A stretch of 64,000 bases of DNA from Minisyncoccota bacterium (lineage in GTDB: Bacteria > Patescibacteriota > Minisyncoccia > Phycocordibacterales > CSBR16-119): contig JAWKSM010000001.1 in the NCBI GenBank assembly GCA_041389065.1, forward strand, positions 9,461 through 73,460, in the 5' to 3' direction. A model generated the notes under the pieces. The model was not told the origin of the DNA and did no database searches. It saw only the letters and a program-made list of their open reading frames with translations. The position numbers and the translations under genes are program-made. This document shows positions 2 through 44,754 of this stretch, in pieces; the first letter of the stretch is position 1; each line of letters starts with the position of its first letter.

Positions 2-625
2 CCAACCATGTTCATAGATCTCAACTATACCTTCACGCCATTCGCCATGGTCGAAGCAGGCAAAGCGAACCCAGAGGAAATCGTCGGCACTACGCCAGAT
101 TGTGCCCAGAAAGTGCACCCTGAGGGTGTCACCGTAATCCTTCTTCTTCCAGGTATCGGGGATGAACTCGGGGTTCTTTTTCAAGAACCCAAGCACGCAG
201 GCATTTAGGAGAGGTTTCTCGGCGATCTCCCTTTGAATGTCGTCCTTGCTAACCAACCTAAGTTTCGGTCGGTAAAGAACAACCTTCTTGCCATCGATAT
301 AGAGATCGTTGGGTGATCGTTTTTCGATCAACACTTTCCCTTCGCCAATATGGCTTTCAATCTTCATGCTAGAATTGAGCCACGGCGGCATCGCCTCGCT
401 ATCGAGATCGATGGTGGCAGAAAGCCACTCTGAGCGCTCATACTCCCTAACCCCCACGATCTCGTGTGAGCCTTTAACCAATCCCATCAGATCCTCCTTG
501 CGGATTTGATGAAAACGGTCAATGACGGGCTTGAAACTACCAAACCATCCGAGCCACTTCTTCAGGAGCTCGAGAGAAGATGCAAGGTTTTCACCTAACA
601 TCTCAACGACTTGTGTGTAAGCCAT
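2..625 (-). CDS. Hypothetical protein, N-terminal 208 codons. The ORF continues past the left window edge and is compositionally foreign.
   Basis: Hand translation of the minus strand from the ATG at 625-623 gives 208 sense codons with no stop down to position 2 (MAYTQVVEMLGENLASS...GEWREGIVEIYEHGW). It is absent from the supplied track because it has no in-window stop. It is visibly GC-richer than the flanking AT-rich DNA. A consensus promoter lies at 737-764. Confidence 0.6.
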   Translation of the reverse strand, partial: MAYTQVVEMLGENLASSLELLKKWLGWFGSFKPVIDRFHQIRKEDLMGLVKGSHEIVGVREYERSEWLSATIDLDSEAMPPWLNSSMKIESHIGEGKVLIEKRSPNDLYIDGKKVVLYRPKLRLVSKDDIQREIAEKPLLNACVLGFLKKNPEFIPDTWKKKDYGDTLRVHFLGTIWRSADDFLWVRFACFDHGEWREGIVEIYEHGW

Positions 626-736
626 TGCTATGTGAATTTAGTTACACTGGGCATTATTGCCACAGCTTTTAAAGCTCATAAAGCACTAAAAGCTATGGCA
701 AACGCTCATTTATATATAAAAGTACTTATTATATAT

Positions 737-764
737 ATTATAGCATATTCATTATTTTTGTCAA
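737..764 (-). promoter_or_regulatory. Sigma70-like promoter, TTGACA-16-TATAAT
   Basis: Minus strand reads TTGACAAAAATAATGAATATGCTATAAT (-35 at 764-759, -10 at 742-737). It lies about 110 nt upstream of the ATG at 625. A 12-bp hairpin (about 661-700) sits in the predicted 5' UTR. Confidence 0.5.
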
Positions 765-785
765 TACACGCCCAGTAACCACTTC

Positions 786-982
786 CGACCGTTTTAAATA
801 TTGCGACGCAAAAATAATAGTATTTTGCCTTAGAAAATGATGCTGTTTGAGCCAGAAGAAGAAGTGTATATACACTTCTTCTTCTGGCGAGTTCATCATT
901 TTCTTGGCTCAAAATCTATTATTTTAAGCAATATTTAATTAGGTCTTGAATTTTTGTTACTTTTGCTTCAAGACAAAAGTAA
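786..982 (-). repeat. TCAAACAG-loop structured element, copy 1 (full length)
   Basis: Minus-strand order: 5' AT hairpin TTACTTTTG..CAAAAGTAA (982-957), then CAAAAATTCAAGAC, then the long hairpin at 925-811. The hairpin core is GAAAATGATG-AACTC-GCCAGAAGAAGAAGTG-TATATA-CACTTCTTCTTCTGGC-TCAAACAG-CATCATTTTC (903-833). A tail, GCGTCGCAATATTTAAAAC, follows. Confidence 0.7.
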
Positions 983-991
983 GAGAAAATC

Positions 992-9921: not shown

Positions 9922-10311
9922 TTACCAAATTTTAAATAATGCTTCTCCGCCGACCAACTCTTTTCGAGCTTCATCACCTGTTAGAACACCTTTTGGTGTT
10001 GAAACAACAAGCAAACCAGCGCCGTTTTTAACAGGTCTGATTTCTTTTGCTTTTATATAAATTCTTCTTGAAGGTTTTGAGATTCTTTCCACGTTTGTAA
10101 CTTTTGGAAGTCTTCCTTCATAAGAAATAGATATTTCAAGAACAGGTTTGTTTTTCTTGTCTGTCTTCTTTGCAATAGTGCCTACGTAATTTTGTTTAGA
10201 AAGACATTCTGCAACTGCATGTCGCAAGTTTGAATAAGGAAGTACAACACTCGCTTTTGATGCTCGTCCTGCATTCTTTATTGTTATTAACATTTCTCCG
10301 ATTTTATCCAT
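9922..10311 (-). CDS. rpsH: 30S ribosomal protein S8 (uS8)
   Basis: 129 aa; DKIGEMLITIKNA and GGEALFKIW termini typical of S8. Confidence 0.95.
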   Translation of the reverse strand: MDKIGEMLITIKNAGRASKASVVLPYSNLRHAVAECLSKQNYVGTIAKKTDKKNKPVLEISISYEGRLPKVTNVERISKPSRRIYIKAKEIRPVKNGAGLLVVSTPKGVLTGDEARKELVGGEALFKIW

Positions 10312-10323
10312 AAAATTTGTAGA

Positions 10324-10593
10324 TTACCAAGAAGATTTTCTAATACCTGGAATTTCTCCTTCATTTGCCAATTCTCGAAACTTGATTCGAGAAAGACCAA
10401 AATCACGAAGAAAACCTTTTCCTCGACCTGTTGCCACGCATCTATTTTTTAGTCTCGATGATGAAGAATTCTTTGGAAGTTTTTGCAAAGCTTCAAAATC
10501 ACCAGAGGCTTTTAGTTCTGCTCGTTTTTTAGCAAATTTTGCGTGAAGTTTTACGCGTTTTGCTTGTCGAGCCAAGACTGATCTTTTTGCCAT
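10324..10593 (-). CDS. rpsN: 30S ribosomal protein S14 (uS14), long form
   Basis: Start re-assigned to the internal ATG at 10593 ([20 protein letters not shown]...GIRKSSW, 89 aa). The 39-codon upstream extension in the track has no S14 similarity. Confidence 0.9.
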
Positions 10594-10749
10594 ATTCTGA
10601 TCTAAACCAAAAGCAAGCTTTTGGTTGTTATTTATAAAAGAAACTGCAATATCTCGTGTTTTTACTTGTATTTTCGAGCCAAATGGCCAGAAAAACACAA
10701 GGAGAAACACGGATTAAACAGGATCTATCAGCTTTTTGCTGATGTTTGT

Positions 10750-10777
10750 ATATTAACAAAAAGGACTAAAAAGTCAA
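10750..10777 (-). promoter_or_regulatory. Sigma70-like promoter, TTGACT-16-TAATAT, re-starting transcription into rpsN
   Basis: Minus strand reads TTGACTTTTTAGTCCTTTTTGTTAATAT. It lies 9 nt outside the 5' hairpin of element copy 2. Confidence 0.45.
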
Positions 10778-10785
10778 TGGGCCTC

Positions 10786-10925
10786 CTTACTTTTTCATTA
10801 CCAAAAAGTAAGCAAAAGGCTAGACCCACACATACCACCTAAAAATAATAGATTTTAAGCTAAGAAAATGATGAACTCGCCCCGCAAAGAAGTGTTTAAT
10901 ACACTTCTTTGCGGGGCTCAAACAG
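10786..10925 (+). repeat. TCAAACAG-loop structured element, copy 2 (5' part only, interrupted)
   Basis: CTTACTTTTT..AAAAAGTAAG hairpin, CTAGACCCACAC motif, then AAAATAATAGATTTTAAGCTAAGAAAATGATG-AACTC-GCCCCGCAAAGAAGTGT-TTAA-TACACTTCTTTGCGGGGC-TCAAACAG. The 3' arm of the outer stem is missing, and Asd-like coding sequence starts at 10926. Confidence 0.7.
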
Positions 10926-11831
10926 GGTGGTTTCAATAGAGACCGGGTCAGAGTCTCTGGATCTTCTCGAAGGGGTGGGCTTACAACCGTTGGAGAACTC
11001 TTGAGCGAACCCCCAAACTTTATTTTGTCTGCCCTACCAGCCAAAGCTGCAAAGGAGATACTTCCTGAGTTTTCTGCAAGAGGCTCAATCGTTATCGATA
11101 AATCCGATGCATTCAGAATGCAGGAAGAGCCGGCTATTAAGTTGATCGTGCCTGAAGTAAATGGGCATTTACTGATAGGAGATGAAAGGATCGTTGCAAG
11201 TCCAAACTGCACAACCACACAACTTGTTGTTGCAATTAATCCCCTTCACAAGGAACTTAGGTTGTCCTCGCTTCACGTTACAACCTTTCAATCTGCAAGC
11301 GGGGCTGGGAAAGAAGGGTCTGAACAACTGCGCAAAGAGTCTCTGCGAATACCCGTTCCGAAAACTGAAATGGTTTTTCGACCACAGCTTTTCAGGAACG
11401 TGGTTCCAGTTTGCGGAAGTATCACAGGAAGCGGTGAAAGTACCGAGGAGCTAAAGATCAAAATGGAAACCAGAAAGATCATGGAGCTCCCCGACCTTCC
11501 GGTCTATGCAACATCGACAAGGGTTGCTGTTGAAAGATCGCACTCAATGTCTGTAGTTGCGAGATTTGAAAAGCCAACAACAGCAGCTTCTGTGATGGAA
11601 ATACTATCTCGAGAAGGTACTGGGGTTGAAATACCCTGTGACAACAGTGAGTATTTCACCGCCTTAGAAGCCTCTGGAGAAAACCTGGTCTATGTTAGCA
11701 GAATTCGCGTAGACAAAGATGATCCAAGAATTGTGAGCCTTTGGGTTGTTGCCGACAACCTAAGAAAAGGTGCGGCACTCAACGCTTGGCAAATAATGAA
11801 AATAATAATGAATCGCAAAGGGTGGTCCTAA
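10926..11831 (+). pseudogene. asd: Aspartate-semialdehyde dehydrogenase, 5'-truncated (no Rossmann GxxGxxG segment, no start codon)
   Basis: Translation shows Asd blocks: VSGSSRRGG, VIDKSDAFRM, LIVPEVN, active-site SPNCTTT, QSASGAG, VERSHS, ADNLRKGAALNA. Similarity continues upstream of the track's TTG start (11001) to about 10926 without any start codon. About 30 N-terminal residues are absent. GC is clearly higher than the host's. Confidence 0.8.
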
Positions 11832-11841
11832 CAGGACCACC
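11821..11841 (+). terminator. Hairpin spanning the asd stop codon
   Basis: GGTGGTCC-taaca-GGACCACC followed by CAATTTTATT. It probably travelled with the asd fragment. Confidence 0.4.
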
Positions 11842-11857
11842 CAATTTTATTAAAAAC

Positions 11858-11881
11858 AAAAACCACCTCTCGGTGGTTTTT
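11858..11881. terminator. Bidirectional intrinsic terminator directly after rplE
   Basis: AAAAACCACC-tctc-GGTGGTTTTT with flanking A- and T-runs, 10 nt from the rplE stop (11891). On the minus strand it would end the transcript inside the spc operon. Confidence 0.6.
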
Positions 11882-11890
11882 GTTTTTGAA

Positions 11891-15497: not shown

Positions 15498-15504
15498 AAT
15501 TTAA

Positions 15505-15600
15505 ATGATTAGAATCGAACCTGTCCGAACGGACTTCGTCCGGGCGGGTACATGGCTAGGTCGTGTATCCAAGGCATAGCCTTAGGGTTCACCGCCATCT
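15505..15600 (-). promoter_or_regulatory. GC-rich structured leader immediately upstream of rpsS (function unknown)
   Basis: Minus strand contains a CUAAGGC-UAU-GCCUUGG hairpin (15585-15569), an enclosing GGCGG/CCGCC pairing, and three segments CGGAC-gaa-GUCCG-uu-CGGAC (15542-15523). The middle segment can pair with either neighbour. It is much GC-richer than its surroundings. It contains a GGTTCGATTC T-loop-like string, but no tRNA cloverleaf can be drawn. Confidence 0.4.
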
Positions 15601-15652
15601 CTATATTTAGTTTAATTAGGTAAAAAAATTCCAGCCAAAACTGGATTTGCCT

Positions 15653-15681
15653 ATACTATCAGATAGGGGTTTTGTTGTCAA
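15653..15681 (-). promoter_or_regulatory. Sigma70-like promoter, TTGACA-17-TAGTAT, re-starting transcription into rpsS
   Basis: Minus strand reads TTGACAACAAAACCCCTATCTGATAGTAT, 15 nt outside the 5' hairpin of element copy 3. It is followed by a small CCAG..CTGG hairpin plus a T-run (15644-15621). Confidence 0.45.
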
Positions 15682-15695
15682 ACGATTTTAGACAT

Positions 15696-15916
15696 GTCAC
15701 TTTTTTCTTAGCAAAAAAGTGACCAAAAAGCCAAGACGCAGAAAAATCTAGCTAAAAACACAGGCTTTTTGTTGAGAAAACTGTGAACTCGCTTTTAGCT
15801 CAAACAGCACAGCTTTTCTAGAACAAAAAGCCTGTGTTTTCTTTACGCTATATTTTAAGCGTCGAAAGATTTTAATTTAAAACGAAGCCCCGCACCTTAC
15901 GGCGCGGTCTCAAAAT
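15696..15916 (+). repeat. TCAAACAG-loop structured element, copy 3 (full length, short inner stem)
   Basis: GTCACTTTTTT..AAAAAAGTGAC hairpin, CAAAAAGCCAAGACGCAG, then the long hairpin AACACAGGCTTTTTGTTGAGAAAACTGTG-AACTC-GCT-ttt-AGC-TCAAACAG-CACAGCTTTTCTAGAACAAAAAGCCTGTGTT. The tail is ACGCTATATTTTAAGCGTCGAAAGATTTTAATTTAAAACG. A GCCCCGCACC..GGCGCGG hairpin then follows, followed by CTCAAAAT. Confidence 0.7.
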
Positions 15917-25451: not shown

Positions 25452-27293
25452 CTAGTTCAGAACAACCTTCACACTTTCGGTTTCTTGTTCACCGATAATG
25501 ATCAGGTTGTACACACCAGGCGATCCTTTTATGACCACCTGGCTACCACTCCTTTGCACCGAAGCTTCTCGACCGAGATGGTCGAAAGCTTGAATGCTTT
25601 GGAATTCACCCTTGATGTTAATCGCTTCACCCAGTCGAGCTGGGTTCGGATACACCAAGTAGCTGTCTGGTTTTTCAGGCCAGAAGCTGAAAGGTTTGAT
25701 GTTTGAAAAGTCATACGACCCGTCAAGGTCGACAGACTTCAGTCTGTAGAAGCTAAGCCCTTCAAGAGGACTCTCATCCACAAACTCATATTGGATCATC
25801 TGCTGGCTATTACGAGAAGCCTCGACAGACCCAACACTTTCAAACACCCTCCCGTCGACTGATCGCTCGACGTCGAAGTGACTACTTCCTTGCTCGCTGG
25901 CAGTCTGCCAAGTTACAAGCGCGGTTTCGTTTTCTCCTTCGACGTCAAACGAAGCAAGTTCGACAGGAAGAACCTGTCCACACGGCACAACCACAGGCTG
26001 GTAGGAGTCGAGCTCCACCAACGCTTCGGTCATTGTCGTGTTTGTAGTCGTTGGAACGTTTTGCACCTGGTTAAAGAATGCTGGGTAAGCGGTGAGCTCG
26101 ATACTCCCCGCCTCTTCACAAGAGCTAAGCACCAATCCTTGGCTTCCGACCGGCGTCACTATGGACCCAGTCGAAGAGTCTTTGTCTTGGTAACTCAGCA
26201 TTTGGAAGTAAGTGGATTCGATAATCCCCTTTCCCGGGGCGCCTCCACCTTCGTAAACGGTTTTGGTCCACGACGCACCCAAAGTGACTTGATCAACCTT
26301 AGACACGAACGAATACGACATGTCTGGGTCTGGCGACGAATTGATCGCTTGACCAGTCATGTAGATACTCGTTCCGTCGGTAGTTAGGTAACCACCATTG
26401 ACCGTCCAACCCGATGGCGCGAAGATGATGCTTGCGCTAAGCAGGTTCAGGCTGCCGTCAGTGCGGACAAGTCCCAAGTGCTGACTCGATGACCCTCTGT
26501 ATGAGAGAAGGAATCCACCTTGATATGGAACTGCGTCGCGCAGAAACTCATCAGCAGTGGACCCGATGGTTGTTTGCCTGTGGCATACACCCAGGTTATC
26601 AAACACCGTCACCGAAATGTCATACGGACCTCCCGATGTTGGATTGCTCCCGAAAAGGAAAATCGAATCCCCGGAAGCAAAAACTCGTTCAGCATGATGA
26701 CCACCGCTAAGCGATCTATCAACTGACTTCCACCACAGGATGTTTCCCGCAGCGTCGAGCTTGCCGATCATCTGGGTTCTCGTCGAGGACGATGTTCTCT
26801 TTGTCCCAGCAACGATTATCTCACCGCTAGGATTTTCAGAAACCGAAGTCAGAACTTCTGTCGTGTCTCGCGACACAATTGGAGTTCCCAAAACCTTCGC
26901 CCAAATAACGTCGCCAGATTGATTCAGTCTCATCGCCAACGCATCTTGCTGGTATTCGCCAACAATAACGATGTCTCCGTTCGAAGCCAGCAGCATGTCG
27001 TTGAAACGACACGTTGCCATAGCGATATCGCAGGAACTCACCGGAATATATACCAGAGTGTCCGAAAGGGTTTTGGCCCAAACAGTTCCTCCAGCATTGT
27101 GACGTGCCACGAAGGCGTTATCGAAACCGTCCCTGGTGTTGTAACCAGAAACGATGAAGTCTCCACTTACAGGAAGACTCACAATCCTTTGACCAACAAG
27201 AGCTTGCCCTGTGGTCGCCGGATCAAGATTGATCTGCTGAGCTGCCAACTCGAAAGTCAGGAGCCCAAAGGCGAAAACAAGGAAGTTTCTCAT
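25452..27293 (-). CDS. Secreted repeat protein with T9SS type-A C-terminal sorting domain (Por_Secre_tail-like)
   Basis: Start set at the ATG at 27293, giving signal peptide MRNFLVFAFGLLTFELAAQQ. The C-terminus VYPNPARLGEAINIKG...GVYNLIIIGEQETESVKVVLN matches the T9SS CTD pattern. It is preceded by the ELASF...W.T.SE...F.VERS.DG...YRLK..D.DG module common in Bacteroidota. GC and GC3 are clearly higher than the host's. Confidence 0.8.
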   Translation of the reverse strand: MRNFLVFAFGLLTFELAAQQINLDPATTGQALVGQRIVSLPVSGDFIVSGYNTRDGFDNAFVARHNAGGTVWAKTLSDTLVYIPVSSCDIAMATCRFNDMLLASNGDIVIVGEYQQDALAMRLNQSGDVIWAKVLGTPIVSRDTTEVLTSVSENPSGEIIVAGTKRTSSSTRTQMIGKLDAAGNILWWKSVDRSLSGGHHAERVFASGDSIFLFGSNPTSGGPYDISVTVFDNLGVCHRQTTIGSTADEFLRDAVPYQGGFLLSYRGSSSQHLGLVRTDGSLNLLSASIIFAPSGWTVNGGYLTTDGTSIYMTGQAINSSPDPDMSYSFVSKVDQVTLGASWTKTVYEGGGAPGKGIIESTYFQMLSYQDKDSSTGSIVTPVGSQGLVLSSCEEAGSIELTAYPAFFNQVQNVPTTTNTTMTEALVELDSYQPVVVPCGQVLPVELASFDVEGENETALVTWQTASEQGSSHFDVERSVDGRVFESVGSVEASRNSQQMIQYEFVDESPLEGLSFYRLKSVDLDGSYDFSNIKPFSFWPEKPDSYLVYPNPARLGEAINIKGEFQSIQAFDHLGREASVQRSGSQVVIKGSPGVYNLIIIGEQETESVKVVLN

Positions 27294-27364
27294 GGGTTTG
27301 TGTGTTTTATGTGTGAATGTTCGCAAAGTGCGAACGTGTCTTACAATGTACTTTCTCAGCCTCT

Positions 27365-27393
27365 TTTATACCATTTTTGACATAAAAAGTCAA
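27365..27393 (-). promoter_or_regulatory. Sigma70-like promoter, TTGACT-17-TATAAA
   Basis: Minus strand reads TTGACTTTTTATGTCAAAAATGGTATAAA, in the AT-rich spacer upstream of protein A. Confidence 0.4.
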
Positions 27394-27429
27394 GTGTATG
27401 CGTGGATTATAAATTAACCTAAAAAAAAC

Positions 27430-27458
27430 TTGATTTTACTGCTTTTATGTGTTATTAT
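27430..27458 (+). promoter_or_regulatory. Sigma70-like promoter, TTGATT-17-TATTAT
   Basis: TTGATTTTACTGCTTTTATGTGTTATTAT, 28 nt upstream of the ATG at 27487. Confidence 0.4.
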
Positions 27459-27486
27459 TTAGCCGAACAACAAACACCATCAAACG

Positions 27487-28641
27487 ATGAAACAGCTAAC
27501 GCTTCTCTTTGCTTTGATGGTCGCCACCGGCACCTTCAAAGCTTACGCTCAGGATGTCGTCTACACTTTCGAAGCCCCCTGCACGAACACACTTTGCCCT
27601 TCTGACCAATGCCACGGAGTTGGAGTTGCAACCCCAAGCACCCTTAACACAAGCGTTTTCGCTTCTGCAAGCGCGCTAAATCCATCACCCTCCCTAGGAA
27701 CAAGTAGTTCATTTTGTGGAACGGCCATGAATGGATTTGCTGCGGGAAACCCAAACAATCCGAACCGTGCTCGTTGGGCCCAGAACTGGACTAGCTCTAC
27801 TACTATAAACACGAATCACTATTTTGGATTCACTCTTGGAGCAGTTCAAAATGGATACATTTCCATATCAAGAGTGGATTTACAAGACAGTAGAAGTGGA
27901 TCTGGCCCACTAACAATCGAACTTCGTTCAAGTGCAGACAACTTTGCAACAACAATCTGGCAACAAACATTGCCAGACAACACTGGGTGGAGATCTTGGT
28001 CAATAACTACAGGACTACCGAGCTTCTACAACTCTCTGACTTTTAGAATCTATGCATACGCAAGCCAGACGACATCTGGCGCTGCATGGAGGATTGATAA
28101 CGTCAAAGTCTGGGCTTCGGTCACCAACCTCCCTATCGAGCTAATCTCTTTCACTGGAGAAAAGTTTGAACAGGATGTACGACTTCGTTGGAAAACAGCC
28201 AGCGAGCAAGACAACGAGCACTTCACTCTCTTTCGTTCACGGGATGCAATAGACGCAACATCCTGGGAAGAGATTGGAAGAGTTCCTGGAGCAGGAACAA
28301 GTCAGAGTCCTATCGACTACGAGTATGTAGATGAGTCACCGAACATCGGGACAAACTACTACCTTCTTCGTCAAACGGACTTTGATGGAACATTCACCAG
28401 TAGCAACATTGTTGCTGTCGAATTCCTAGCTTCAAAGGACTTCTCAGTGTTCCCAAATCCGACATCGCGTGGTAGCCCCGTCAGAACTTCCAAGAGAATC
28501 GACTTCATTTTCGATGATCTTGGTAAAATGACGAGGTTTGACCCGAACAACATCACACTTGAAGTGCCTGGGGTCTACACCCTGGTCCACCAAAGTGAAA
28601 ACGGTTTTTCGGAAACAATCCGACTAATCGTCACCCCCTAG
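27487..28641 (+). CDS. Secreted protein with T9SS type-A C-terminal sorting domain
   Basis: 384 aa; signal peptide MKQLTLLFALMVATGTFKAYAQD. Contains the same ELISF...RWKTASEQDNEHF...YYLLRQTDFDG module as protein A. The C-terminus is FPNPTSRG...GVYTLVHQSENGFSETIRLIVTP. Confidence 0.8.
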   Translation: MKQLTLLFALMVATGTFKAYAQDVVYTFEAPCTNTLCPSDQCHGVGVATPSTLNTSVFASASALNPSPSLGTSSSFCGTAMNGFAAGNPNNPNRARWAQNWTSSTTINTNHYFGFTLGAVQNGYISISRVDLQDSRSGSGPLTIELRSSADNFATTIWQQTLPDNTGWRSWSITTGLPSFYNSLTFRIYAYASQTTSGAAWRIDNVKVWASVTNLPIELISFTGEKFEQDVRLRWKTASEQDNEHFTLFRSRDAIDATSWEEIGRVPGAGTSQSPIDYEYVDESPNIGTNYYLLRQTDFDGTFTSSNIVAVEFLASKDFSVFPNPTSRGSPVRTSKRIDFIFDDLGKMTRFDPNNITLEVPGVYTLVHQSENGFSETIRLIVTP

Positions 28642-28651
28642 AAATTCTAGG

Positions 28652-28686
28652 AAGACCTTCGCCTCACGGCGAAGGTCTTTTCTTTT
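28652..28686 (+). terminator. Intrinsic terminator after protein B
   Basis: AAGACCTTCGCC-tcac-GGCGAAGGTCTT followed by TTCTTTTT. Confidence 0.65.
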
Positions 28687-28694
28687 TATTTATA

Positions 28695-28722
28695 TTGACA
28701 AAAAATATTTCTGTGATATTAT
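28695..28722 (+). promoter_or_regulatory. Sigma70-like promoter, TTGACA-16-TATTAT
   Basis: TTGACAAAAAATATTTCTGTGATATTAT, 39 nt upstream of the ATG at 28762. Confidence 0.45.
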
Positions 28723-28761
28723 TCAACCAAAACAAACCCCGTCCTTTAACAGAAACAGATC

Positions 28762-30465
28762 ATGAAAAAACTACTGACCATAATCATGACGCTTTGCGTC
28801 TGCTTTGTGTACGCGCAAGACCAGATCAGCTGGGTGCGTTTCCAGTGCGGCGATAGCAGCACGGTGAGATACATCTCACTCGAGGACCGCAAGACCATGT
28901 TCAAGGTGAACATGTCCTGGCCCGAGAATGAAACGCGAGAAGTGTTCCAACACTACAACGACAACCCCATTGGCGTGTCCATGGGGCAAATGCAGGGTGG
29001 TGAATACTTCATCACCCTGGATCACCCTGGTGATAGTATCAATCCAGTAATCGGATACCAGAGCATCTACACTGTCAGACTGGGAACCGCAAATGGGAAT
29101 CACACGGAAGACTGCAATGTCCGCACTGAACCAACACCAGTTATTCAAGCCACTATGAGCACCAGCCCGCTTTCGGGCGGCGGCTCACTCGTAACCATTA
29201 TTGGAAACTCACACACAGCAGACACTGTAGCGAGCAACCATAGTGGTTGGGGCTGGATAAGTAATAGCGAGCTACCATGTAGTCGCCACGAGATCTCCAT
29301 CATCACCGATGTGTTTTCTGAAGACGGCCTGGTGTTTTCGGACACGACGGTATGTGTTCCGGGTGTGCCAACAGACTTCTCTGCTGAGTTTGACTATACG
29401 GGTCCGTACACCATATTGTGCGCGGAAAGCCGAATGGAAAAACGAAGCATGGAAGTTCCTGCCGAATTTCCAACACGAGTTATTGTTCTCAGCAGTCAAA
29501 CGTGTCAGATGGCAGGGCAAGTTCCTCCGAGCATCGAGCTTTTGAGAACTTGTGAAGATGGCACTATCGGCACACCACCGACAACAGGAGACAGAGAGTT
29601 CCTCGTTCGATTCAATATCGATTGGCCGGGCGACGATGAGCAGAAACTCCTCTACTACACCGTCCCGAACAACAATACCGGACTACCGAATTTGGTGAGC
29701 AGTGGACAACTCTTCCATCGTGGGCAAAACTACATCGTGATTGAACACGATGATATTGACCCCGTTTCGGGAAGTGCATACTTCCAGGAATGGCACACCA
29801 AGCTGGCCTTCCGTTACGGTGAGGAGTTCATCTACAGTCAGCTTTTCATCGCGTCGACGGAACCCGCGCCAGTGCTCGAAGGATCGTGGCTCCCTGTAAG
29901 TGGAGACTCGGTGTCGTTCTCTTACCGAGAGCACACGGAACTATCCGAAGCGCTCGGCTGGGGATGGATTCTGGGCATATGTCCAGAATATGAGCTCATA
30001 CTCATCAAACGGGTGACCGATAGCGATGGAGAAACAGTGTTCACGGACACGGTCTTCCTCACTCCGGGAATACCTGTTGATGAAGAAGATGGCTTCCTTT
30101 ATACAGGCAACTCAACCGAGCTCTGCCTTGAACTCGAGATGCAACGCATTCACCTCGCTGATTCGGTTCACTTCGAGCCGCAAACAATCATAACGGTGGA
30201 TGGTGGATGCATTGGAAGCTCGACAGCGATTAGCGAAAGCGAAGGTGTTGCCGAGAACCAAACTCGAATCTTTCCAAACCCAACAACGGGGCGAGAAGTT
30301 CGGATACTCGGAGCCATACCTAGCTCGAAGTGGTCTGTCTTCAGTACATCAGGAAGCCTGGTGTTGACTGGAGCAGGTCAGATGATCGATGTTTCTACGC
30401 TGTCCTCTGGTGTTTACGTGGTGAACATTGAAGGCGGCGCCACTGTTCGGCTTGTCCGACAGTAG
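28762..30465 (+). CDS. Secreted protein with an internal ~240-aa duplication and a T9SS type-A C-terminal sorting domain
   Basis: 567 aa; signal peptide MKKLLTIIMTLCVCFVYAQD. The two halves share TEP(T/A)PV, GWGWI, VF(S/T)DT, PG(V/I)P and YTG blocks. The C-terminus is FPNPTTGREVRILG...GVYVVNIEGGATVRLVRQ. Confidence 0.8.
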   Translation: MKKLLTIIMTLCVCFVYAQDQISWVRFQCGDSSTVRYISLEDRKTMFKVNMSWPENETREVFQHYNDNPIGVSMGQMQGGEYFITLDHPGDSINPVIGYQSIYTVRLGTANGNHTEDCNVRTEPTPVIQATMSTSPLSGGGSLVTIIGNSHTADTVASNHSGWGWISNSELPCSRHEISIITDVFSEDGLVFSDTTVCVPGVPTDFSAEFDYTGPYTILCAESRMEKRSMEVPAEFPTRVIVLSSQTCQMAGQVPPSIELLRTCEDGTIGTPPTTGDREFLVRFNIDWPGDDEQKLLYYTVPNNNTGLPNLVSSGQLFHRGQNYIVIEHDDIDPVSGSAYFQEWHTKLAFRYGEEFIYSQLFIASTEPAPVLEGSWLPVSGDSVSFSYREHTELSEALGWGWILGICPEYELILIKRVTDSDGETVFTDTVFLTPGIPVDEEDGFLYTGNSTELCLELEMQRIHLADSVHFEPQTIITVDGGCIGSSTAISESEGVAENQTRIFPNPTTGREVRILGAIPSSKWSVFSTSGSLVLTGAGQMIDVSTLSSGVYVVNIEGGATVRLVRQ

Positions 30466-43571: not shown

Positions 43572-43642
43572 GATTTTTCTTTAAAAGTATTAATTTACTT
43601 TTTTCATAAAAATCTCCTTTTGTTTTTCCTTAAAATATCTCC

Positions 43643-43955
43643 TTACTTTTTTCATGATAAAAAAGTAACAAAAAATCTAGACCCACACTTCACACTTAAA
43701 ATACCATCTTTCTTTTCCCTTGAAGGAAAAGAAACAAAAGTTCAAGACGCAGAAAAATATATCTAAAATTTATTCAATTTTGGCTAAGAAAGTGATGAAC
43801 TCGCCCGAAAAAGAAGTGTCTATACACTTCTTTTTCGGGCTCAAACAGCATCACTTTCTAAAGCAAATTAAATAAATTTTCGGACGATATATTTTAAGCG
43901 TCAAGGGATTTTAATTAAAAAGAATAAGGGCGACCCCGGTGAGGGTCGCCCTTTT
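43643..43955 (+). repeat. TCAAACAG-loop structured element, copy 4 (full length, duplicated 5' module, own terminator)
   Basis: TTACTTTTTT..AAAAAAGTAA hairpin; CTAGACCCACAC motif; a second hairpin TTCTTTTCC..GGAAAAGAA; TTCAAGACGCAG. The long hairpin follows: AAAATTTATTCAATTTTGGCTAAGAAAGTGATG-AACTC-GCCCGAAAAAGAAGTG-TCTATA-CACTTCTTTTTCGGGC-TCAAACAG-CATCACTTTCTAAAGCAAATTAAATAAATTTT. The tail is GACGATATATTTTAAGCGTCAAGGGATTTTAATTAAAAAG. It ends in GGGCGACCC..GGGTCGCCC plus TTTT (43928-43955). Confidence 0.75.
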
Positions 43956-44099
43956 AGTTCTGCACCCATGGTGCAAGGAGCTTGGTTTACTCCTTTTTGT
44001 GGCTATGCCAAGTGTGGTTCCTTAGGTTACGGATTTTCATTCCGACCCAGGCACGTGGCGTGGTTTAGCTCATCGTTCGCCACGAGACGATGAACTTCT

Positions 44100-44609
44100 T
44101 CAACACAGCAGCGTAAGCGTCCAGCCAGGGCGCACCATCACCCACACCATCCGGTGCGAATGCAGGGCGGCCGCGGTGCTCACGTTCACATGGTTGAAGC
44201 TGTTGTCGCCGTTCATGATCATGCAGCTGCACGATCGTTCAGGCTCCAGCACCACCATGCGGCCGCTGCTCACGTTCACCAACTTGTCGAAGTTCAGGTC
44301 CAGGTTCGTACACATATTGAAGTTCTTCGTGTGGTCGCTCGAGGCGAAACCGGTGTTGCCGACCGTATGATCGGATCGGTGCACCACGGTCTCCTGGCCG
44401 CTGACTTGCGCGAATGCGCTGCAATACTTGTTGGTGATGCTGGCCAGGAAGATCCCTTGCTCGGGCATGATCTGGTCGGCCGATGCGCTGCTGTTGTCGA
44501 CTACTTCGATGTTGTCCACCTTCGGCCCCGTGTCGGGTGCCGAGAAGGCGGGTTTGACACTGAACGCCAAGCCGGCGATCAGTGCCATGATTCCAATGTG
44601 CATCTTCAT
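44100..44609 (-). CDS. Hypothetical secreted protein (169 aa) in a very GC-rich foreign segment
   Basis: Signal peptide MKMHIGIMALIAGLAFSVKPAFSA and strongly G/C-ending codons. The overlapping ORFs on both strands look like high-GC artefacts. The promoter at 44661-44688 points into it. Confidence 0.6.
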   Translation of the reverse strand: MKMHIGIMALIAGLAFSVKPAFSAPDTGPKVDNIEVVDNSSASADQIMPEQGIFLASITNKYCSAFAQVSGQETVVHRSDHTVGNTGFASSDHTKNFNMCTNLDLNFDKLVNVSSGRMVVLEPERSCSCMIMNGDNSFNHVNVSTAAALHSHRMVWVMVRPGWTLTLLC

Positions 44610-44636
44610 GGTATGAAGGGATTTGTTGCGTCGGAT

Positions 44637-44649
44637 TGTTTGAGCCCGA
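44637..44649 (-). repeat. Inverted partial copy of the element core (TCGGGCTCAAACA)
   Basis: Minus strand reads GAGTCGGGCTCAAACAATCCGAC. The 13 nt TCGGGCTCAAACA are identical to the copy 4 core at 43835-43847 but in opposite orientation, on the far side of the GC-rich segment. Confidence 0.55.
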
Positions 44650-44660
44650 CTCTGGGAGGA

Positions 44661-44688
44661 AGTATAGCATATTATAAAAACTTGTCAA
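44661..44688 (-). promoter_or_regulatory. Sigma70-like promoter, TTGACA-16-TATACT
   Basis: Minus strand reads TTGACAAGTTTTTATAATATGCTATACT. It shares TTGACAA and AATATGCTATA, at the same spacing, with the promoter at 737-764. Confidence 0.45.
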
Positions 44689-44754
44689 GCATTTTATTTT
44701 ATGGTATAGTCAAAAACGTATAAAACCATTATTTATCAACATATTTTAAATACC

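Follow-up and report, generated by a model that had tools for sequence, protein, structure and literature searches.

The window analysed here is a 64-kb stretch of DNA from a metagenome-assembled genome (MAG) of Candidatus Paceibacterota, a group of the candidate phyla radiation (CPR). In it, the ribosomal-protein genes rplE and rpsN are separated by 1297 nt that contain one half of a long palindromic repeat element, the second of four copies in the window, joined to a 5'-truncated gene for aspartate-semialdehyde dehydrogenase (asd; the truncated form is called asd' below). This arrangement is probably the damaged remnant of a horizontally acquired islet in a permissive gap, with an asd pseudogene left behind. 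The element and asd would have arrived as foreign DNA, together or successively, and one non-specific event would have removed the 3' arm of the large hairpin of the element, the intervening sequence, and approximately the first 25 codons of asd. Such an event could have been either an illegitimate join at uptake or a deletion that the long palindrome stimulated, and a further 15 codons of the Rossmann domain would be missing as well. The coincidence of the break with a conserved loop would then be due to chance or to fragility of the palindrome tip and not to a dedicated cleavage site. On this view, the half-element and asd' would both be ordinary horizontal-transfer debris in a permissive gap.

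The broken copy and the truncated asd gene

Members of the element family share a common plan: a small hairpin (hairpin A), the sequence CAAAA, and a giant imperfect hairpin (hairpin B) with an invariant internal loop formed by the strands AACTC and TCAAACAG. In copy 2, hairpin A (CTTACTTTTT / loop / AAAAAGTAAG; 10786-10812, plus strand) aligns with the covarying hairpin A of eight other CPR copies. It is followed on the same strand by the 5' arm of hairpin B (10820-10878), which in the alignment ends with GATG, the closing stem, and AACTC, the 5' loop strand. Next is an apical inner hairpin (10879-10917), which is predicted by folding and has compensatory differences among copies 1, 2, and 3 and the loci L124, L125, and L127 from other sources. 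The last bases of the element are the 3' strand of the internal loop (10918-10925), identified by invariant alignment columns and by BLAST. In copy 1 the counterpart of this 5' arm pairs with a 3' arm (fold z = -10.7).

The entire 3' arm is missing from copy 2. As the earlier note had proposed, the copy is intact up to 10925, where its match to intact copies ends with GGCTCAAACAG. Similarity to the closest intact copy (L125, 84%) stops exactly at this position, as does similarity to copies 1 and 3 and the BLAST similarity to L124, L126, and L127. Intact copies continue with CATCA(T/C/G)TTTCT, whereas copy 2 has GGTGGTTTCAAT; at the junction, GATGAACTCGCCCCGCAAAGAAGTGTTTAATACACTTCTTTGCGGGGCTCAAACAG is directly followed by GGTGGTTTC. 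The CPR alignment was built from the four window copies and five CPR copies from other genomes and metagenomes. Its closing stem and apical hairpin vary by compensatory substitutions, and GATGAACTCGC and GCTCAAACAG are invariant (GCTCAAACAG in 9 of 9 copies; copy 4 has GTGAACTCGC).

The first bases after the break require some caution. GGTGGT (10926-10931) and GGGTC (10945-10949) are able to pair with two stretches of the lower 5' arm, CCACC and GACCC, and the join can therefore be placed only within 10926 to ~10950. The energy of this duplex is among the best 0.5% of windows across the 64 kb, but a second site inside asd' pairs better. The idea that these bases are a remnant of the 3' arm is statistically ambiguous.

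The asd' gene (10926-11831, plus strand, stop codon included) was identified by Pfam, NCBIfam, and PDB matches and by alignment. It lies in a stop-free frame of 318 codons (10875-11831) that was not reproduced in any of 20000 shuffles (0/20000 stop-free). The frame is preceded by an in-frame TGA TGA (10869-10874) and closed by the stop codon at 11829-11831; the earliest possible start is the TTG at 11001. The public MAG annotates the open reading frame (ORF) from this TTG (11001-11831, plus strand, 276 aa, with GGAG 7 nt upstream). The translation is a 100% match to the record P0001, named 'MAG: aspartate-semialdehyde dehydrogenase [Candidatus Paceibacterota bacterium]'. Copy 2 and asd' share one direction, and both are opposed to the operon.

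The truncation is evident from the profile matches. The C-terminal domain is complete (Semialdhyde_dhC, PF02774: E 6.6e-34, profile positions 2-184 of 184), while the match to the NAD-binding domain PF01118 is restricted to positions 68-116 of 121. The alignment with NCBIfam PRK14874 begins at profile position 73, and the NCBIfam and PDB alignments for close Asd relatives start at profile or chain positions 72-92. Asd homology is thus detectable by profile from ~11016-11043 onward. A global alignment with 11 homologues takes the similarity back to GGF (10926-10934), at about Asd residue 25-27. The earlier note had let Asd begin at 10926 with residues 28-35. The 5' truncation stands and the alignment does reach 10926; the exact join is less sharp than claimed, given the possible pairing with the 5' arm, and the entry into Asd is slightly earlier. 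The GATGxVG columns, which correspond to the GxxGxxG start of the Rossmann fold, are absent and no start codon is present at the join, in agreement with that note. In addition, asd' has a 15-residue gap after SSRRGG.

No Asd N-terminus was found anywhere else in the 64-kb window. Without the Rossmann start, with the additional 15-residue gap, and with no N-terminus nearby, asd' is most likely non-functional. It is also foreign-looking, and the earlier view of it as captured junk DNA holds. Its GC content is 46% compared with ~35% in the host, and its GC content at third codon positions (GC3) is 0.405 compared with 0.17-0.28 in host genes. A terminator-like hairpin found by terminator scan (11820-11842, plus strand) overlaps its stop codon, so the fragment carries a stop and a hairpin of its own. 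A search of 5.8 billion proteins returned non-self homologues that are at best 37-47% identical and come from many phyla. From matches at this level of identity the donor cannot be named. The open and little decayed frame suggests that the event was probably recent.

It is also conceivable that a shortened Asd-like protein works from the TTG at 11001, with the catalytic and dimerisation domain kept for some function. Both active-site residues, C112 (SPNCTTTQ) and H223 (RSHSMS), are retained in invariant columns, but otherwise invariant positions are changed from RVPV to RVAV and, beside the catalytic His, from GHSE to SHSM. Overall, asd' keeps 48 of the 52 columns invariant among homologues, as many as the most divergent true homologues. 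The PRK14874 score is above its cut-off (237.1 compared with 223), while that for TIGR01296 is far below (218.3 compared with 324.2). Although the frame is open and the public record annotates it as asd, the nucleotide-binding fold would have to do without its first beta-alpha-beta unit as well as the 15 residues mentioned above. The promoter scan of the plus strand gave only a weak 9-of-12 match, inside the element, and the gene is absent from a closely related strain (L001, described below). A working product of this kind therefore appears improbable.

The rplE-rpsN gap in related genomes

From left to right on the plus strand, the gap contains the leader and promoter of rpsN, the 5' half of the element, the Asd frame, its hairpin, and the terminator of rplE. 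The flanking genes are all on the minus strand. They are rplE (L5, 11891-12457, identified from its ORF; P0121, named 50S ribosomal protein L5, is 100% identical), rpsN (S14, 10324-10593, 89 aa, identified from its ORF and translation, with a Pfam Ribosomal_S14 match and an identical product on Logan contig L001), and rpsH (9922-10311). The promoter scan placed an rpsN promoter at 10750-10777 (minus strand; TTGACT, 16 nt, TAATAT with TG), and a structured 5' leader with several small hairpins occupies 10594-10749 (minus strand). The leader is conserved in L001, L128, L129, and L133, which have an equivalent TTGAC(A/T)...TA(A/T)(T/A)AT at the same place. On the other side, the terminator scan found a bidirectional terminator after rplE (11850-11889; 97% match to L001 3-36), and equivalent hairpins lie 3' of rplE in L128, L129, and L133. 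A scan for tRNA and tmRNA genes found none.

These two conserved features delimit a variable segment, with borders at the promoter (10761, where similarity to L001 ends) and at the terminator (11850). The earlier note had called for a comparison with sister genomes, and a near-empty rplE-rpsN junction was indeed found, in L133 (RplE 84% identical). Its 209-nt spacer consists of the terminator, TTGACA-17-TAATAT, and a conserved leader of ~150 nt. In the same gap L128 (RplE 88% identical) has a 216-aa ORF, and L129 (RplE 88% identical) has ~300 nt of GC-richer non-coding DNA. L001 (Logan SRR27197494) is 98.7% identical to window positions 10761-9087 (rpsN to rplF) and at its other end matches the rplE terminator. 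Between these (L001 1-1400), an NYN-domain gene and a 160-aa ORF for a putative membrane or secreted protein replace the element and asd'. In all cases the inserts are confined to the stretch from the terminator to the -35 box.

Judging by the loci compared, the rplE-rpsN junction is a hotspot in this Paceibacterota clade. Since a terminator followed by a promoter is present at the junction, the 'operon' already consists of two separate transcription units at this point, and insertions into the gap are tolerated. DNA between the rplE terminator and the rpsN promoter leaves expression undisturbed, and the inserts differ by lineage. The earlier note was correct in placing the fragment inside the spc operon, between rplE and rpsN, but it overstated the oddity of this position, since a terminator and a promoter are already there and relatives have four other contents.

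The strain variation at this junction also bears on the possibility of an assembly or binning artefact, in which the asd' segment of another organism was wrongly joined into the contig. The co-occurring variant L001 differs in content, and the end of its contig falls inside the rplE terminator, which indicates that the assembly graph branches here. The window contig also has several deviant segments (GC3 0.41 to 0.84), some with sorting domains of the Bacteroidota-type type IX secretion system (T9SS). Neither P0001 nor the exact RplE of the window has a gene-position index record, and P0001 represents just one contig in the protein collection; an independent assembly of this haplotype was thus not observed. 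However, an artefact would require two false joins, since host-type sequence flanks the segment on both sides within one contig. The divergence of copy 2 from the other window copies exceeds 15%, and the longest run that it shares with them is ~20 nt (judged by eye), which is less than a misjoin caused by repeats would need at usual k-mer sizes. The right part of the segment has its own terminator followed by the host terminator, which is a plausible order. On balance, we consider an artefact unlikely.

A second such hotspot is located upstream of rpsS. Copy 4 lies in the rplB-rpsS gap together with two ORFs of 120 and 147 aa that have no Pfam matches, just outside a conserved promoter and leader. 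These belong to rpsS, which has a separate promoter of its own (TTGACA-17-TAGTAT) followed by the conserved leader (window 15498-15690, minus strand; L128 300-448; L133 300-451); the window version of the leader has an additional GC-rich hairpin (~15510-15545) that is not in L128 or L133. The rpsN gene likewise has its own strong promoter and a leader (window 10594-10777, minus strand; L133 4065-4273; L128 4760-4944; L129 2700-2933). The conserved ~150 nt of this leader had no Rfam match, and it could be an autoregulatory leader of the S14 or S8 type. The GC-richer stretch in L129 (2500-2760) has hairpins and could represent either another remnant or a gene for a small RNA. A Pfam search of the small 'cargo' ORFs beside copies 1, 3, and 4 and in the relatives detected only the NYN domain in L001. 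The ribosomal-protein string of this clade is split before rpsN and before rpsS, with separate promoters and structured leaders, and the gaps serve as landing sites for foreign DNA. This is relevant to gene uptake by very small genomes.

Two other foreign-looking pieces are present in the window. Three genes with 50% GC lie beside rpsL (25452-30465), and two of the three encode T9SS type A sorting domains, which score above the curated cut-off for Por_Secre_tail and are typical of Bacteroidota. This island is either a horizontal transfer from Bacteroidota or a sign of a chimeric contig. The second piece (43930-44730, up to 58% GC) is located between tig and clpP, just after copy 3. It contains a 169-aa ORF (44100-44609, minus strand) with a signal-peptide-like start, a GC3 of 0.835, and no Pfam match.

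A palindromic element family in several phyla

The earlier note had treated the repeat as a local CPR element, which turned out to be wrong. The core pattern TGAACTCGC-N(5-35)-GCTCAAACAGCA was searched in contigs of one genome per species and occurs more than 118 times among the matches listed, with ~8 expected by chance. The hosts include Bacteroidota (Filimonas with at least 17 copies, Geofilum, Salinimicrobium, Tannerella, and Chitinophagaceae), Proteobacteria (Acinetobacter, Acidovorax, Variovorax, and Achromobacter), Desulfobacterales (at least 8 identical copies, many of them at contig ends), Clostridia, Omnitrophota, Margulisiibacteriota, Ignavibacteria, and several CPR groups. The pattern was also detected in one viral contig. 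From sequence comparison, the element is not CPR-specific and belongs to a very widespread palindromic family.

In every real copy the core lies within a hairpin which extends out to 170-300 nt. Among 80 distinct closing stems, the six core-adjacent positions are 80-95% paired, compared with 36-52% when partners are shuffled, and all four Watson-Crick pair types occur at each of the six positions. The hairpin A module (GTTACTTTTT..AAAAAGTAAC followed by CAAAA) is common to CPR, Filimonas, and Acinetobacter; the viral contig has a variant (GTTCTTTTCTTA..TAAGAAAAGAAC followed by GAAAAG). Most copies (95 of 108, 88%) are outside ORFs. The flanking genes are oriented (+,+) in 22 cases, (-,-) in 24, convergently in 11, and divergently in 9, with no direction preference. 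In the closing stem, G-T mismatches occur as often as A-C mismatches. The equal frequency of the two mismatches, together with the lack of orientation bias, fits action at the DNA level, and the element behaves like a repetitive extragenic palindrome (REP) or a MITE (miniature inverted-repeat transposable element), acting as DNA. The family is probably mobile, since it is multicopy, near-identical in some genomes, found at contig ends, and present on a viral contig.

The remaining window copies differ in their state of preservation. Copy 1 (736-984, minus strand) is intact and is followed by an outward TTGACA-N17-TATAAT; it is 90% identical to L069 and L124 despite unrelated flanks. Copy 3 (43707-43900, plus strand), identified by alignment, is also intact. 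It is directly preceded by a truncated fragment (43642-43705, plus strand) which consists of hairpin A and ~30 nt from the start of the 5' arm and belongs to repeat family D13; it matches L125 191-249 at 95% identity before the similarity ends. In copy 4 (15697-15880, plus strand; identified by alignment; between rplB and rpsS) the apical hairpin has shrunk to a short loop. Downstream of copy 1, the TTGACA-N17-TATAAT is accompanied by a conserved hairpin leader (GCCATAGCTTTTA...TAAAAGCTGTGGC; window 625-735, minus strand; L127 960-1119). This leader precedes a gene with no assigned function that is conserved in L127 (38% amino-acid identity; window GC3 0.60).

Some hosts show particular arrangements. 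In Geofilum rhodophaeum the copies form tandem arrays of two to six with a spacing of 168-365 nt and no ORFs (L100 996-1460; L107 3320-4250; L093), and one such array is immediately upstream of dnaA. Eight Acinetobacter genomes (L026, L029, L032, L042, L045, L058, L102, and L106) have one copy between a histidine-kinase gene, probably envZ, and ompR. On the 10.9-kb viral contig (L120 7050-8040), two copies ~850 nt apart flank two short reading frames on the strand examined.

Database and literature searches did not identify the family. Rfam 15 at the gathering score gave nothing in the window or in 15 loci from at least 8 lineages. With E up to 10, copy 3 had only chance-level matches, the best being MicX (33.7 bits against a cut-off of 75), which was dismissed because it rests on terminator-like hairpins. 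BLAST of the element against phage and plasmid collections gave no phage match, and in Acinetobacter baumannii records it matched only hairpin A and CCAAAAAAC, which lie beside a different hairpin and have no annotation. When 1100 neighbouring ORFs were clustered all against all, only housekeeping families (among them histidine kinases, OmpR, and efflux proteins) and no partner protein emerged. In the literature the motif strings of the element were found in primers only, and keyword searching gave no description of it. An internal loop that is invariant across phyla is unusual, and we could not match it to any described family.

Several candidate identities were discarded. The element was considered as a promoter (TAGACC...AATAAT) with a small RNA, but what look like its -35 and -10 boxes belong to the lower 5' arm, which is paired with the 3' arm. 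BoxA, Cas9 repeat/anti-repeat, hammerhead, hairpin, and twister ribozymes, the kink-turn, and parS were compared at the motif level and none appeared to fit. The pC194-type nick site CTTGATA, compared in the same way, occurs only in the Filimonas hairpin A loop and does not appear to fit. With its invariant loop, its absence from Rfam, and no obvious partner protein, the family merits its own study if it is truly undescribed, and it is a more interesting lead than the broken copy.

The break point and comparison with known systems

The earlier note suggested that the junction of loop and stem is a site of hairpin-guided cleavage or strand exchange. Taken as site-specific capture, this would mean that the folded strand of the element acted in the manner of attC or an IS200/IS605 end, was cut at the 3' edge of the loop, and was joined to a random piece of foreign DNA that by chance begins inside asd. 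The break does coincide with the end of the invariant GCTCAAACAG. The 80 covarying closing stems argue that the hairpin is real and selected, and the probable mobility of the element, its mismatch symmetry, and its indifference to orientation are consistent with an activity at the DNA level. However, the survey of breaks does not extend this to other copies. It covered 0.96 Mb of fetched loci with ~140 cores, with chance coding matches and copies cut by contig ends set aside, and copy 2 alone was without a closing 3' arm. The other CPR copies that span the core are all intact. The fragment at 43642-43705 is broken ~45 nt before the core, unlike copy 2, and truncations thus occur at differing positions. 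No integrase or transposase family is linked to the element in its neighbourhoods. The gene downstream of copy 1 is orthologous in L127; with homologous genes at the same place in both, cargo swapping there is rejected. Beyond a single coincidence, nothing supports a dedicated cleavage site, and site-specific capture receives little of our confidence. The fuller version of the proposal, in which the element is an undescribed mobile or recombinogenic DNA hairpin, spread from CPR to Bacteroidota, Proteobacteria, and phage, and copy 2 is the footprint of cleavage at the 3' loop edge and joining to foreign DNA, is very improbable; if true, it would reveal a new kind of hairpin-guided gene-capture site.

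A damaged islet remnant is still the preferred explanation, and one further comparison agrees with it: copy 2 is 84% identical to L125 and L126, from other metagenomes, but only 75-77% identical to the remaining copies (1, 3, and 4) in the same genome. An arrival together with the islet would predict this. The other pieces of foreign composition on the contig, including the genes with T9SS sorting domains, are also in line with this explanation. Several points weigh against this explanation. No ancestral arrangement was found in which an intact element precedes a full-length asd. With the nearest Asd at 47% identity, the deletion is inferred and not seen. The break is located no more than a few bases from the border of the best conserved element motif, which a priori offers a small target, and the pairing of GGTGGT...GGGTC with the lower 5' arm may point to an event of a more structured kind or to survival of part of the 3' arm. 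Finally, the join is known from the assembled contig.

Among known systems, integron attC sites resemble the element in being imperfect hairpins with a variable tip and unpaired conserved bases, sometimes beside small cargo genes. However, the element has no complementary RYYYAAC/GTTRRRY boxes, the strands AACTC and TCAAACAG not being complementary, and its closing stems vary freely with no conserved AAC/GTT. The Geofilum arrays, unlike cassette arrays, hold no ORFs between copies. General clustering of the neighbours revealed no recurrent recombinase or integrase, although no profile search for IntI was included. The ends of IS200/IS605, their derivatives without ORFs (palindrome-associated transposable elements, PATEs), and IS1397-type insertions into the loops of palindromes are similar in that hairpins act as DNA and are apparently mobile with no ORF of their own. 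The element differs from IS200/IS605 in that no Y1 (HUH) transposase or TnpB recurs beside it, as far as neighbourhoods show, and in that it is conserved at the centre of one long hairpin instead of having two different subterminal hairpins.

REPs, bacterial interspersed mosaic elements (BIMEs), and REPINs are also multicopy, mostly intergenic, orientation-independent, and sometimes tandem, with covarying stems. A REP unit is however short (20-40 nt), whereas the element combines hairpin A with a hairpin of 170-300 nt, and no GTAG/CGTC tag is found in its alignments. The asymmetric invariant internal loop is common to several phyla, while to our knowledge REPs are conserved only within species or genus.

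Two further comparisons concern the locus itself. Long inverted repeats are deletion hotspots, as established by Escherichia coli genetics, and copy 2 has one end point near the tip of a ~200-nt palindrome. What distinguishes this case from palindrome-stimulated deletions is that, with no ancestral sequence at hand, neither the second end point nor any microhomology can be traced. The locus as a whole is similar to strain-variable intergenic islets, with the same borders, differing contents, a near-empty site, foreign composition, and partly degraded content. It differs from them in that the hotspot is located within an otherwise highly conserved string of ribosomal-protein genes.

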